A stretch of DNA of 13,200 nt from IMG/VR virus record IMGVR_UViG_2657245439_000001; one strand, 5' to 3'. The position numbers and the translations under genes were made by a program. The DNA comes from a virus. Lineage: Duplodnaviria > Heunggongvirae > Uroviricota > Caudoviricetes. Shown here one piece after another: positions 1-13,200 of the stretch (within the stretch, counting starts at the first letter, position 1; each line of letters starts with the position of its first letter). The notes under the pieces are model-generated. The model saw nothing but the letters and a program-made list of their open reading frames with translations. It ran no database searches and was not told the DNA's origin.

Positions 1-1399
1 CCTTCAGGCGCTGTTCCGTGCCTTCCCGTTCTGCCTGCCGGTCAGTCAGCCCCCGGCTTTTCGCATCAATGGCGGCCCGTTTTGCCCGTTGCTGCTGTGC
101 GAATTTATCCGCCTGCTGCGCCAGCGCGTTCAGGTGCTCCTGATACGTAACCTTGTCGCCAAGTGCAGCCAGCTGGCGCTTGTACTCCAGCGTCTCGTCT
201 TTATGCGCCAGCAGGGATTTCTCCTGTGCAGACAGCTGGCGACGTTGCGCCGCCTCCTCCAGTACCGCGAACTGATTCTCCGCCTTCCACAAATCCCGGC
301 GCTGCTGGCTGATTTTCTCATTCGCTCCGGCATGCTTCTCCAGCGTCCGGAGTTCTGCCTGAAGCGTCAGAAGGGCAGCATGAGCACTGTCTTCCTGACG
401 ATCGCCCGCAGACACCTTCACGCCGGAGTGCTTCGGCTTTTTCAGCGTCGCTTCATAGTCCTTTTTCGCCGCCATCAGCGTGTTGTAATCTGCCTGCAGG
501 ATTTTCCCGTCCTTCAGTGCCTTGTTCAGTTCTTCCTGACGGGCGGTATATTTCTCCAGCGGCGTCTGCAGGCGTTCGTAAGCCTTCTGCGCCTCTTCGG
601 TATATTTCAGCCGTGATGCCTCAGAGTCGGCCCAGTCCTTTGCTGCCATCTCTCTGGCCTTTTCAAGATCGGCCTGCAACGTGGCGGCTGAAAGCCCAAG
701 TTGCGCATTCGCTCTGTCCTCCCATGCTCCACGGAGATTGGCAAGAAATGCTGAGGTTTTACCGCGCCGGTGGCTTCGGCTCTGATACCACTGCCATTTT
801 TTATCCGCTTCATCAAAAGCCTTTTCAGCTTTGGCGAGCATATCTGCAGAGGAGTCCGGGCGGCCAATATCCAGCACCGCATCCCACATGGATTTGAATG
901 CCTGTGCAGTCTTGTCAGCCCAGGTCTCCAGCGTACCCATGTTATCTTTCAGGCGGCGGGTCTGGTCATCAAACCCTTTCGTTGCGGCCTCGTTCGCCGC
1001 CTGCAACGCCCCGGCCCCATCGCCGGAACGCTGCAACTGAGCAACATACGCAATCTGTTCCGCCGTCACGTTATGGAACTGGCGCGCCATCGCCGTCAAC
1101 CCAGACGTCGGGTCAGTGGTCAGCTTCCCGAAGGCTTCAGCGACCTTGTCCACCTCCACGCCGGATGCAGAGGAGAAACGCGCCACACTCTGGCTGATTG
1201 CCTCAAACTGCTCACCACCACGCACACCGGCATTCACCAGCGCCGTCAGTGACTCGCTGGTCTGGTTAAACGTCAGCCCTGCCGCCTGCCCGGTTCTGGA
1301 CAGGGCCAGCATACGATCTGCCGTCAGTCCCGCCTGATTACCGGAAAGGACCAGCGTTTTGTTGAAATTAGACAGGGTTGAGTCACCCTGATACCAGGC
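1..1399 (-). pseudogene. H: Tail tape measure protein H, portion downstream of the in-frame TAG; frame stays open to the window edge
   Basis: I translated the minus strand codon by codon from 1399 to 2 in the H frame and found no stop codon. The product (e.g. ...KRQLAALGDKVTYQEHLNALAQQADKFAQQQRAKRAAIDAKSRGLTDRQAEREGTEQRLK) is clearly tape-measure-like and continues past position 1. It is separated from the H start only by the TAG at 1400-1402. First in-frame ATG after the stop is at 1312-1310. Confidence 0.8.
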
Positions 1400-1810
1400 C
1401 TACGTCAGCGCACCGGTCGCCACCGCTAGCGAAGTGATACCAACCATCGGCAGGGTGATCGCACCGGCAAGTCCCCTGAACATGGGGATCATCCCGCCAA
1501 AGGCGTCCTTCACCTGACCGCCCTGTTGCAGCAGGATCAGCCACGGACTTTGCCCGCCTGCAAGCTGCGTGGCCACGTCGGTGAACTGCGCAGGCAGCAT
1601 ACGCATGGCAGCTTTATACTGCCCGACGGAAATCCCCGCTTTCTGTGCAGCCAGCGCCTGTCGGTTCATCGACTGCTCAACAACTGCCGCTGTTTTTTTC
1701 GCATCACTTTCCGTACCGGAAAAATGACGCCTGACTCTGGCCATCTGCTCGTCAAATCTGGCCGCATCCAGACTCAAATCAACGACCAGATCGCCTACCG
1801 GTTCAGCCAT
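1400..1810 (-). CDS. H: Tail tape measure protein H, N-terminal 136-codon fragment ending at an in-frame amber TAG
   Basis: ATG at 1810-1808 overlaps the T stop (ATGGCTGA arrangement). The 136-aa product MAEPVGDLVVDLSLDAARFDEQMARVRRHF... matches the lambda gpH N-terminus. TAG at 1402-1400 falls where a sense codon is expected. Confidence 0.85.
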   Translation of the reverse strand: MAEPVGDLVVDLSLDAARFDEQMARVRRHFSGTESDAKKTAAVVEQSMNRQALAAQKAGISVGQYKAAMRMLPAQFTDVATQLAGGQSPWLILLQQGGQVKDAFGGMIPMFRGLAGAITLPMVGITSLAVATGALT

Positions 1811-2321
1811 ACCGGACTCCTCCTGCGATCCCTTCTGATACTGTCATCAGCATTACGTCATCCTCCGTCATGTCCGCCACATCCGGGGAAGCGGGGATAA
1901 CTTCATTCCCGTCAGGGCCAAAACGAACGCCTCCGGCAAGCCCTGCCGCTTTCTGCATCAGCACATCATCTTCAGGCTCTTCGTCAACCTCACGCCGGCT
2001 CAGCAGACTGAAATCCAGCGGATGCATATCCGGATCGCTGAAAAACAGGCTGAGCACGGTGTACGTCAGCCCGGAAAAGTGCATATCCAGCAGAACATCA
2101 TGAAAATAATGGGTACTGTAAAAGCGGTGCCAGTCGGCATACTCCGTGGATGACATCCCGGCAAGCATGGCGCGCCAGTCGGGTCGCCCCATCTCACGCG
2201 CCAGTTTCAGGGCAAAACTCAGACATTCCGGACAGACGTAACACCACGTTTTCAGCCTGAGCAATTGCCTCCGTGGGCCAGGTGGTAAGCACTTCCTGCT
2301 CAATCTGTTTAACGGCTTCAT
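1803..2321 (-). CDS. T: Tail assembly chaperone T-domain ORF (the T part of G-T); homology to gpT begins near 2237, upstream codons are an out-of-frame shadow of G
   Basis: The product ...ALKLAREMGRPDWRAMLAGMSSTEYADWHRFYSTHYFHDVLLDMHFSGLTYTVLSLFFSDPDMHPLDF...GIAGGVRYG matches lambda gpT. Its stop TGA at 1805-1803 overlaps the H start. The frame is +1 relative to G, not the -1 expected for lambdoid G-T. Confidence 0.75.
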   Translation of the reverse strand: MKPLNRLSRKCLPPGPRRQLLRLKTWCYVCPECLSFALKLAREMGRPDWRAMLAGMSSTEYADWHRFYSTHYFHDVLLDMHFSGLTYTVLSLFFSDPDMHPLDFSLLSRREVDEEPEDDVLMQKAAGLAGGVRFGPDGNEVIPASPDVADMTEDDVMLMTVSEGIAGGVRYG

Positions 2322-2544
2322 TCATGGACGGCATCTGCGTCTTCTTCGGATGGTTATGCCACAGGGACATCGCCACCACAAAAGCGCCGGTTCTGATGAC
2401 GTCTTCCACAGTAAACTTCCGGTTGCTGTCGGATTCTGCCTGCTGTTTCATCAGGGCGAGATGCTCAATACGCTGCAGGGCTGACAGTTCAGAAAGCGTG
2501 ACAGTCACGCCGTTATATTCAAATGATTCGGTTTTCAGGAACAT
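2194..2544 (-). CDS. G: Tail assembly chaperone G, C-terminally truncated (116 aa versus about 140 in lambda)
   Basis: ATG at 2544. The first ~110 aa (MFLKTESFEYNGVTVTLSELSALQRIEHLALMK...VLRLSGMSEF) match lambda gpG, followed by 6 unrelated residues (CPETGA) and TGA at 2196-2194. Confidence 0.85.
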   Translation of the reverse strand: MFLKTESFEYNGVTVTLSELSALQRIEHLALMKQQAESDSNRKFTVEDVIRTGAFVVAMSLWHNHPKKTQMPSMNEAVKQIEQEVLTTWPTEAIAQAENVVLRLSGMSEFCPETGA

Positions 2545-2559
2545 CGCTGACTCTCCGGA

Positions 2560-3300
2560 TTAGCTGTCGGTGACGTTGATTTCTGCAACCGCAGCAAACT
2601 CACCATTACCGGATACGACCGGAATGTTGACCTTGCCTGCAGCAACGCCCTTCACGGTGATGGTCATACCACTGACCGACACGGTGGCTTTTGTTTTATC
2701 CGCTGACACCGCACGGAAGCTCTTGTCGGTTGCGCCTTCCGGCTGGAATGCCACGGTCAGCGTGGTGCTCTGCCCTTTCACTACGGAAGCACTGGCTGGC
2801 GTTACCGTCATGCCGGTTGCCGCTGTCACCGTGCTGCGATCTTCTGCCATTGACGGACGGCCCACATTGGTGACCTTCACCGTACGGGTGATCACTTCCT
2901 TCGCCGTCACCGCCTTACCGATACTGCTGACCCAGCCACGGAACACATCGACCGTGCCGTTCGGGAAGCGGATTTTATAGGCACGGGTATCGCCTTCATT
3001 AAACCACGCCAGCAGCGCCTGCTGCCCCTGCTCTCCGGGCATCCACGCCAGCGTGAAGCTGGTATCTCCGGCGGATTTCTGCCCCTGCCCGGTCGCGGCC
3101 CAGTCCGGATCTTCATCATCGAGATAACTGTCGTCATAGGACTCTGCGGTCAGTTCGCCGGGCGTCAGTTCTTTAACTTTTGCCAGACGCGACCAGTCAA
3201 CGTCTGAAAGCGGGTTCGCATAAGGGTCACCGCTCCCCTTATAAACCCACAGAGTGGTTCCGGCACCTTTCACCGGTGCCAGAGGATTTGGTGTTGGCAT
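2560..3300 (-). CDS. V: Major tail tube protein V with C-terminal Ig-like domain
   Basis: ATG at 3300 preceded by a GAGGA RBS. The 246-aa product [36 protein letters not shown]... matches lambda gpV in length and sequence. The track ORF is extended upstream to 3330, but the internal ATG is the conserved start. Confidence 0.93.
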
Positions 3301-3703: not shown

Positions 3704-4233
3704 CGCTTTATCGCAATCCTCAGTTGTTGTTTCAGGGCGTATTCCAGTTCTTTCGGCAAACGTTCACGCCGTATCTGTTCAATATTCTGTTTAAACGCCG
3801 TGGTCAGCGGCACCGCCATCGGGATTTTCACCACATCAATGGGGTAACGGTTTTTCCCGGCCACACGCTGCATGACATGCCAGCGACCATTTTTTAATCG
3901 CTGGATAAATGCCCGCTGATAACGATGCTGACCGGCCCGTAGCGTACTGTTGGGACGACTTCCGGTGATCCGTATCCCCAGTTTGATGACAGGTAAATCA
4001 CCGCGGTTAACAATGATTTTTACGTGCGGATTTTTGACCGTGGCCTTTTTCAGTCTGGCCCTTTCCTTTACCAGTTTTCGCCGCACCTTTGTCTCACGGG
4101 CAACCTGTGACGCCGACTGATTCATTGCCGTTGTGGCCACGCGGTTAATGGCCATTGCGGAGGCACCGGGCACTGCCGTTTTGCTGATACGGCTGAGGTT
4201 TTCAACGGCCTGCTCAAGACCTTTTATGGCCAT
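3700..4233 (-). CDS. Z: Tail completion protein Z, with a divergent and shorter central segment
   Basis: ATG at 4233 with a GGAGGAGG RBS. The N- and C-terminal regions match lambda gpZ (MAIKGLEQAVENLSRISKTAVPGA... and ...KNGRWHVMQRVAGKNRYPIDVVKIPMAVPLTTAFKQNIE...). The product is 177 aa versus 192 as recalled for lambda. Confidence 0.88.
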   Translation of the reverse strand: MAIKGLEQAVENLSRISKTAVPGASAMAINRVATTAMNQSASQVARETKVRRKLVKERARLKKATVKNPHVKIIVNRGDLPVIKLGIRITGSRPNSTLRAGQHRYQRAFIQRLKNGRWHVMQRVAGKNRYPIDVVKIPMAVPLTTAFKQNIEQIRRERLPKELEYALKQQLRIAIKR

Positions 4234-7789: not shown

Positions 7790-11470
<3,681 letters not shown>

Positions 11471-11496
<26 letters not shown>

Positions 11497-12016
11497 TCAG
11501 CAACCCCGGTATCAGTTCATCCAGCGCGGCTGCTTTGTTCATGGCTTTGATGATATCCCGTTTCAGGAAATCAACATGTCGGTTTTCCAGTTCCGGAAAA
11601 CGCCGCTGCACCGACAGGGGGATCCCGTCGAGAATACTGGCAATTTCACCTGCGATCCGCGACAGCACGAAAGTACAGAATGCGGTTTCCACCACTTCAG
11701 CGGAGTCTCTGGCATTTTTCAGCTCCTGTGCGTCGGCCTGCGCACGCGTAAGTCGATGGCGTTCGTACTCAATAGTCCCTGGCTGGAGATCTGTCTCGCT
11801 GGCCTGCCGCAGTTCTTCAACCTCCCGGCGCAGCTTTTCGTTCTCAATTTCAGCATCCCTTTCGGCATACCATTTTATGACGGCGGCAGAGTCATAAAGC
11901 ACCTCATTACCCTTGCCACCGCCTCGCAGAACGGGCATTCCCTGTTCCTGCCAGTTCTGAATGGTACGGATACTCGCACCGAAAATGTCAGCCAGCTGCT
12001 TTTTGTTGACTTCCAT
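11471..12016 (-). CDS. Nu1: Terminase small subunit Nu1
   Basis: 181-aa product MEVNKKQLADIFGASIRTIQNWQEQGMPVLRGGGKGNEVLYDSAAVIKWYAERDAEIENEKLRREVEELRQA... matches lambda gpNu1. ATG at 12016, immediately downstream of cosB. Confidence 0.95.
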
Positions 12017-12193: not shown

Positions 12194-12205
12194 AGGTCGC
12201 CGCCC
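12194..12205 (-). other. cosN: cosN cohesive-end sequence (minus-strand GGGCGGCGACCT, the 12-nt 5' overhang of the lambda left end)
   Basis: Plus strand 12194-12205 is aggtcgccgccc, the reverse complement of GGGCGGCGACCT. It is followed on the minus strand by CGCGGGTTTTCGCTATTTATGAAAATTTTCCGG, as at the lambda left end, and lies about 190 nt upstream of the Nu1 ATG. Confidence 0.85.
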
Positions 12206-12505
12206 CGTAGCCTGCCGGATCGCCGGAAAGGACCCGCAAGCGTTCTGGTTTATTCGCAATGAATTCAATGTCTGACAGACCAGCGTCGTGCGACCACGGT
12301 CGCACGCTCCTGAATACATGCCCTGTTTCTTCCACCCTCGCACAAGACTGGCGAGCATGAGGGACAAACCCGCGAATCATTAGCTCGGTAAAAACCCGGT
12401 GTGCATCGTTTTGATTATTCCCGCACACTCGCGCAGAAGGAATTCCCCGTCGGGCTACGGTCATGGTTAATGCGGGAATACGGCGACGATACAGCGCATA
12501 ATGTG

Positions 12506-13054
12506 TCAGGCTTGAATACCTTTATCGAATCCCGGTAATAAAAACTGTCCCTGTCTCTCCAGACGTTCCAGCTTTGCAAGCAATTGAGGTTTTTTCGTTC
12601 TCCCCCAGCGATTGAGCAGACGGCCTGACATGCTGGCGACATCCTTCTCTTTCATGTACTCCAGCATTACGGCGTTACGTTCTGCTTCATAACTTTCGCT
12701 GTACTTACGGAGTTCTGCTGACATCCAGTTAAACGCATTGATATAGGCTTCTTTAACAGCATCGGCTTTTGCCCCGTTAAATCCCATAACCAGCATAACG
12801 AAGCCACTAAAGTCCATGCGGTAGTAAATCTGTTTCTTGTCAAAAATCCCTAAGTCATTGATTTTCTCGACGGCCCAAAAATGGGTTGTCGAGAATTCCT
12901 CAGAACATCTCAAACATTTAATAGCCCTAATCACATGCTGATGGCGTTTACCAAATGCCCTGGCAATCTGGAAGGTGTCAGTTACCGGTTGACCTTCTGC
13001 TGCGGTAACTAACTGGCGAAAGTCGAAGTCATGATTCGCAATTAATTCATTCAT
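12506..13054 (-). CDS. Rha-family phage regulatory protein (putative; alternative GTG start at 13123)
   Basis: ORF in late-operon orientation. The N-terminal region MNELIANHDFDFRQLVTAAEGQPVTDTFQIARAFGKRHQHVIRAIKCL resembles the Rha-family (Phage_pRha) N-terminal pattern, including the FGKRH-x-x-V-(I/L)-R motif. No database search was possible. The ATG at 13054 is chosen over the upstream GTG. Confidence 0.55.
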   Translation of the reverse strand: MNELIANHDFDFRQLVTAAEGQPVTDTFQIARAFGKRHQHVIRAIKCLRCSEEFSTTHFWAVEKINDLGIFDKKQIYYRMDFSGFVMLVMGFNGAKADAVKEAYINAFNWMSAELRKYSESYEAERNAVMLEYMKEKDVASMSGRLLNRWGRTKKPQLLAKLERLERQGQFLLPGFDKGIQA

Positions 13055-13200
13055 GGCGTTGCCTGCTTCTTTGAAATGAACCTTTGCCGCACAGGAAACC
13101 AGCCCACCGAGGCTCGCCAGCACTAACTGGTATCCTCAAAGGCCCATTCCAAAGGGTCAGGTTCGGTGTTTATTGTGCGCTGCGGTGCGCGGTGAAATAC

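Follow-up and report, generated by a model that had tools for sequence, protein, structure and literature searches.

An exchanged allelic cassette in the tape-measure gene H of a decaying lambda-like prophage

Within the tape-measure gene H of a lambda-like prophage, positions 617-865 of the stretch of DNA analysed here (the window, 13,200 bases) carry one of two deeply diverged homologous alleles that have been swapped by homologous recombination. The overall reading that we favour, with a probability of roughly 0.85, is that the block is an allelic cassette exchanged through homologous recombination, and that in the H gene of this decaying prophage it contributes to no working protein. An initial annotation had described a tape-measure segment at 650-900 that diverges from lambda between near-identical flanks. 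Codon and DNA alignments agree with that description, and the peptide quoted there is the exact minus-strand translation of window 602-865; the block exists, with both of its ends about 35 bases away from where they had been placed, as the codon alignment gives 617-865.

The contig and the extent of the cassette

The window is the entire draft contig JHTH01000118.1 of assembly GCA_001266385.1, and its minus strand holds the late genes of a lambda-like prophage, namely Nu1, A, the head genes, V, G, T and the start of H, with the gene order V-G-T-H present but the G/T overlap and its slippery site deleted (Table 1). Identity to lambda is 95.8% across 12.2 kb and rises to 98.6%, likewise across 12.2 kb, for the nearest phage to have been sequenced, Escherichia phage 2B8 (LR595859, Alegriavirus); this bears out the earlier suggestion that the element is a relative of lambda rather than lambda itself. 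The part of H within the window (1-1810) is 99.2% identical in DNA to the H gene of 2B8. PF06791 (TMP_2) is matched by both of the H fragments that flank an amber codon, with E values of 1e-29 (profile 2-86) and 8e-33 (profile 89-207), and PF09718 (Tape_meas_lam_C) is found on the downstream H product of the near-identical relatives L007 and L008, the window itself stopping at codon 603.

Table 1. Positions in the window of the genes, junctions and lesions discussed in the text
Feature	Position	Strand	Basis and remarks
Nu1	11471-12016	minus	
Tape-measure gene H, first 603 codons	1..1810	(-)	start at 1810, truncated at 1 by the contig end; translation, Pfam, match to 2B8
Conserved 3' junction, 44 bases as in lambda directly downstream of the cassette	573..616	(-)	codon alignment
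Mosaic cassette ("beta" allele), H codons 316-398	617..865	(-)	codon alignment; 83 codons vs 77 in lambda
Conserved 5' junction, 32 bases as in lambda directly upstream of the cassette	864..895	(-)	codon alignment
Codon of lambda residue A304	899-901	(-)	counted from the alignment; 12 residues upstream of the cassette
Small polymorphic patch, H aa 189-204	1199..1246	(-)	window TALVNAGVRGGEQFEA (NAGVRGGEQFEA), lambda SALVKAGVSGEAQIAS (KAGVSGEAQIAS)
Amber TAG, H codon 137	1400..1402	(-)	Tyr TAT in relatives; interrupts TMP_2 and divides H into a piece of 136 residues and the rest
Remnant of tail assembly gene T	1803..2192	(-)	PF06223; -1 frameshift from G no longer reaches T
Truncated, altered tail assembly chaperone gene G	2194..2544	(-)	116 codons vs 137-140
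88-base deletion junction	2222..2223	(.)	removes the G 3' end, the GGGAAAG slippery site and the T start

Several features lie outside the tail region. At 12199-13200 the sequence runs on beyond the position of the lambda left end (cos), and since it passes that position the element is taken to be in integrated or circularised order. An ORF on the minus strand at 12506-13123 matches in size and position a gene of the E. coli Z1323PEC0014 prophage whose annotation is that of a Rha-family regulator. Within the portal gene B, 1,200 bases (8001-9200) are 100% identical to lambda in surroundings of 96-99%, which suggests that this stretch may be a recent exchange. After the cassette, the part of the window that departs most from lambda is at 3801-4000 (77.8% identity, 49 gap columns), in tail gene Z, which has 177 codons in the window and 192 in lambda.

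Nowhere in the window is the divergence from lambda greater than in the cassette. In the DNA alignment, for which KT232076 served as the lambda reference, window 598-847 shows only 15-33 identities per 50 bases and a length difference of 18 bases, against 45-50 per 50 on either side, and outside the polymorphic blocks the flanks of the cassette are 96-100% identical. The same contrast is seen in the protein, where 292 of 315 residues upstream and 200 of 206 downstream match lambda, whilst within the cassette, which is six codons longer in the window, the match falls to 27-28 of 83-84 residues (~33%); the segment is thus far from identical to lambda H, and identity there is what would have refuted the annotation. 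Synonymous sites are saturated there, with a pS of 0.84 in the cassette and 0.07-0.16 in the flanks, a contrast well outside what chance would give, and pN within the cassette is 0.47. With the cassette of 2B8, on the other hand, the identity is 100% (83/83 residues).

A search of the cassette against Pfam matched no family. A relationship between the two alleles can be recovered, as the cores of the window and lambda cassettes align with a BLOSUM62 local score of 77, whereas shuffled sequences score 32 +/- 6 and none of 1000 reach 77; judged from this alignment the two are diverged homologues rather than unrelated sequence.

Distribution of the alleles and evidence for exchange

Both allele classes are common. 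The window type together with a relative of 77% identity is present in 2,031 of 5,426 complete E. coli genomes (about 37%) and the lambda type in 3,036 of the 5,426 (about 56%); when the best match per E. coli record is taken, some 960 are identical to the window allele at 90% or more, and another 1,072 lie at 60-80%. Among phage records the window type was counted in 21 (at least 92.8% DNA identity), the 77% form in 40 (Stx2a phages, PhiR12) and the lambda type in 61, N15 and HK225 giving a weak match to the lambda allele only. Carriers of the window type include phages 2B8, 2E9, PhiR34.1 and PhiR47.2. An identical cassette also occurs in E. coli 377323_2f, in a prophage annotated with many frameshifts; this genome was left aside.

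A BLAST search for a donor lineage had been proposed for this segment. When 50,697 phage records were queried with the cassette by tblastn, the window allele came up only in H genes of the lambda type, all in E. coli phages, and no donor lineage outside the family could be named. Because the window allele is found only in such genes, the donor lineage is the H family itself.

A survey of variation across the whole of H drew on phages in IMG/VR and GenBank and took the best 80 matches per query, which gave 153 full-length genes encoding 111 distinct proteins; in these the variation is limited to three blocks, aa 189-204, 316-398 and ~780-830, the remainder being almost invariant. The first of these, the small patch, matches lambda at 31 of 50 bases over window 1198-1247 and exists as two allele classes whose frequencies are about equal in the same 153 loci (best 80 matches per query). 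The third block lies past the end of the contig and is seen in relatives such as L002 and L007 (GTPGSMADSRSQASGTFEQ vs GGAGSPAQMRRAEGINFNQ); the amber lineage has a lambda-like form of it and 2B8 the other form, and in the samples of the best 80 matches per query its forms combine freely with those of the cassette.

Samples made up of the best 80 matches per query are biased, whereas a sample drawn by a conserved 17-mer is roughly unbiased, and the distinction matters for the patch and the cassette, as a tight linkage between them proved to be an artefact of the best-80-per-query ranking. Among the 120 loci listed from the 17-mer draw all four patch/cassette combinations occur (a/a 57, b/b 27, b/a 11, a/b 3), with eight further a/a loci among the matches listed having a variant alpha cassette that the motif left unscored, and the four-gamete test applied to these listed matches accordingly indicates recombination. 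Patch and cassette are evidently partly linked, in linkage disequilibrium yet with recombination between them.

The surroundings of the cassette tell of exchange as well. The window-type allele is found in lambda-like flanks in PhiR68_2, whose H matches lambda outside the cassette at 303/315, 205/206 and 254/255 residues, and in flanks that resemble 2B8 and 2E9. In the downstream flank the window has a dS of 0.07 to lambda and 0.125 to 2E9, whilst in the cassette dS to 2E9 is 0.128 and that to lambda is saturated. Furthermore, among carriers of the window type the left junction takes at least four forms (GRPDSSADMLAKAEKAF, GRPDTAQGMLEKAEKAF, GRPDTAREMLEKAEKAF and GRPDTAQEMLEKAEKAF), a diversity that points to crossovers having taken place independently within the conserved GRPD...ML.KAE region; the conserved 5' junction is a likely crossover zone. 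Homologous recombination in the conserved flanking sequence in this manner transfers alleles between otherwise near-identical H genes. With saturation confined to the cassette, flanks and left junctions that vary between carriers, and all four patch combinations present, the recombinational mosaic that had been proposed from the sequence alone is upheld.

Two other origins for the cassette would seem very improbable. The region may contact host proteins, and its high pN would suit fast local evolution in place, for example through positive selection where the protein is exposed or touches the host, with lineages exchanging nothing; such a process would however have to account for a pS that is saturated as well, and because synonymous differences are saturated only in the cassette, selection at the protein level alone is insufficient to explain its divergence. 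Nor would it place the same allele in differing flanks behind differing junctions, or yield every patch/cassette combination among the matches listed. An equally slight probability is given to foreign, non-homologous DNA placed into H, whether a domain of an unrelated protein or a gene nested in another frame. Blastn shows no DNA similarity between the two alleles, as would be expected of foreign DNA, but they are of nearly equal length and align as proteins with a score that shuffling does not reach, the cassette drew no Pfam match, and by tblastn the window allele is confined to tape-measure genes of the lambda-H type in E. coli phages. As to a nested gene, the minus strand has at window 607-882, in the +1 frame of H, a 91-codon ORF whose extent is nearly that of the cassette. 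It is open in every window-type allele, and its frame runs for 113 codons without a stop in the window, in 2B8 and 2E9 and in the PhiR12_1 allele of 77% identity. Synonymous sites of H should change less where a second gene overlaps them; instead, dS from the window to PhiR12_1 reaches 1.56 in the cassette against 0.53-0.97 in the flanks, and off-frame stretches of 78-115 codons are open elsewhere in H. The ORF at 607-882 was accordingly rejected as a by-product, the synonymous change of the H frame not being reduced and similar open stretches existing elsewhere.

The picture of the lambda-type H gene that emerges from exchange between homologous alleles is of a near-invariant gene with three exchangeable blocks, the largest of which exists as two old alleles that are both very common in E. 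coli. The cassette is an ordinary, common intragenic mosaic block, already known in kind and with an allele class that is already in the literature.

Decay of H, G and T in the contig

The H gene that carries the cassette in the window has no uninterrupted frame of ~853-859 codons, being stopped by TAG at codon 137. Three to four other assemblies encode an identical product of 136 residues, including GCA_900450055.1, GCA_900449185.1 and GCA_053258235.1, in which H differs from the window at 2 of 1,810 bases, and this shared occurrence indicates that the amber is inherited and therefore not a read error. A search of 5,426 complete E. coli genomes gave no exact copy of the 121-base stretch that surrounds the amber, the nearest E. 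coli match having one mismatch and an annotated intact H of 853 codons. Relative to 2B8 there is also a 3-base in-frame deletion in H at window ~466, by which one Ala of MAAAKKDY is lost; this loss is likewise absent from lambda and 2E9 and is common to the amber lineage.

A further lesion is found upstream, where 88 bases have been deleted across the junction of G and T. In L008 the stretch that the window has lost is flanked by two direct repeats of 8 bases (AAACTCAG), and window 1800-2560 no longer contains a GGGAAAG. A fusion protein of G and T is required for tail assembly, and because the slippery site and the G/T overlap have been deleted this fusion can no longer be made. The deletion is private to the window contig, its closest relatives L007 and L008 being intact there; a search for the junction in one genome per species gave no match, and of the 30 best-matching complete E. 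coli genomes none spans the deletion in a single aligned piece, all of them aligning as two. In G there is also a 9-base in-frame deletion relative to 2B8, at window ~2433.

Other late genes of the close relatives have been damaged too. A transposase gene of the IS4 family interrupts the tail fibre gene J in L007 (17501-18829) and in L008 (17573-18901), and in L008 the terminase gene A (226-2152) is called as two ORFs, beside a 1-base indel relative to the window. With the interruption of J and the split A as further evidence, the prophage lineage is to all appearance decaying. The H of the window reads as a pseudogene of its family, in which the cassette is carried passively and would give no working protein, and because of the amber at codon 137 and the deletion of the G/T frameshift site the cassette is moot in this contig. 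For the window, then, it is of little import, being a common allele, identical in the sequenced phage 2B8, within the dead gene of a decaying prophage; what interest remains attaches to the idea that the two alleles may act as a switch of the entry route.

A possible role in entry and comparison with known systems

The H protein is the ruler that sets tail length. The difference of six residues between the alleles, some 0.9 nm of helix, is judged too small to have an effect on tail length. In an AlphaFold2 single-sequence model of H residues 238-470 (mean pLDDT 58, mostly helical) the window cassette is predicted, at this low confidence, to comprise a helix, a basic loop (HRRGKTS), a second helix and then the start of a long helix, with a helix break at GRPDSS (residues 316-321).

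After ejection gpH* forms a trans-envelope channel for DNA (PMC12617516), a protein which the authors of that study modelled in pieces with the cut point chosen at residue 319/320. In lambda the mutation A304V bypasses the inner-membrane mannose permease ManYZ; of the lambda-clade phages PhiR68.2 alone has no need of ManYZ and is only modestly inhibited by the SNIPE nuclease, and its tape-measure protein departs from the clade at aa 300-400, overlapping A304V (PMC13190303, Nature 2026). This region of PhiR68.2 proves to be the same cassette allele class as that of the window (77/83 residues, the six differences being accompanied by a different left junction).

Since the cassette starts 12 residues past A304 and PhiR68.2 shares the window allele, a role in the entry route is suggested, and the most likely function for the allelic difference, put forward tentatively and at less than even odds, is that it sets the inner-membrane route used by the phage. 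The link to ManYZ comes from one phage, PhiR68_2, whose H is lambda-like except for the cassette, a window-type patch at aa 189-204 and six scattered substitutions, and given these and differences elsewhere in the genome the cassette is not isolated as the cause; a text search of PMC13190303 found no report of a cassette swap experiment. A rather more speculative extension is that the cassette, possibly together with the aa 189-204 patch, may be a two-state entry switch, ManYZ-dependent or ManYZ-independent, both states of which would be kept at high frequency among E. coli prophages by selection from ManYZ loss, DicB and SNIPE-like nucleases. If this were true, balancing selection over a long time would have left its mark in the synonymous divergence, which is saturated in the cassette while the gene is elsewhere 96-99% identical. 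Given the published link of the region to ManYZ and to nuclease sensitivity, the cassette allele could serve as a sequence marker that predicts the entry route and the defence sensitivity of lambda-like phages.

It is also conceivable, and we would regard it as a substantial minority reading, that the recombinational polymorphism is real but neutral, the middle of the ruler accepting almost any helix so that old alleles persist and hitch-hike. Central lambda H reportedly tolerates in-frame deletions with only a shortening of the tail, in work ascribed to Katsura and Hendrix (1984) and Katsura (1987), and a neutral segment would be in keeping with the match of the cassette to no Pfam domain and with the mostly helical structure that is predicted, at low confidence, for both alleles. 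A uniform tolerance would not however predict variation packed into three blocks with the rest of the protein near-invariant (111 distinct proteins, best 80 matches per query), and the high frequency of both alleles also speaks against neutrality, as do the ManYZ-independent PhiR68.2 and the A304V mutation, both of which implicate the region. A role for the cassette in the entry route remains the function that we prefer, with the reserve expressed above.

Comparison with named systems places the window H close to, and yet apart from, each of them. Like lambda gpH (853 residues) it is the same gene, in the same position after G and T and with a TMP_2 domain, but it has the other allele at codons 316-398 and at aa 189-204, is without one Ala codon at ~466 and carries the amber at codon 137. 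Phage 2B8 is the nearest in both H and cassette; it differs in having Tyr137, a G/T region that is intact and keeps the slippery site, and the alternative C-terminal block. PhiR68_2 shares the allele class, whereas its left junction is lambda-like through DTAQ where the window reads DSSA, its flanks are lambda-like and its H is intact; the ManYZ and SNIPE phenotype belongs to PhiR68.2, the window H being non-functional. Lambdoid phage genomes are described, for example in PMC9836094, as mosaic through modular exchange by recombination, and the sharp transitions between near-identical and diverged sequence and the recurrence of the same blocks in varied combinations are features that H shares with them; the difference is that the unit here is not a gene or a group of genes but an 80-codon piece within one conserved structural gene.
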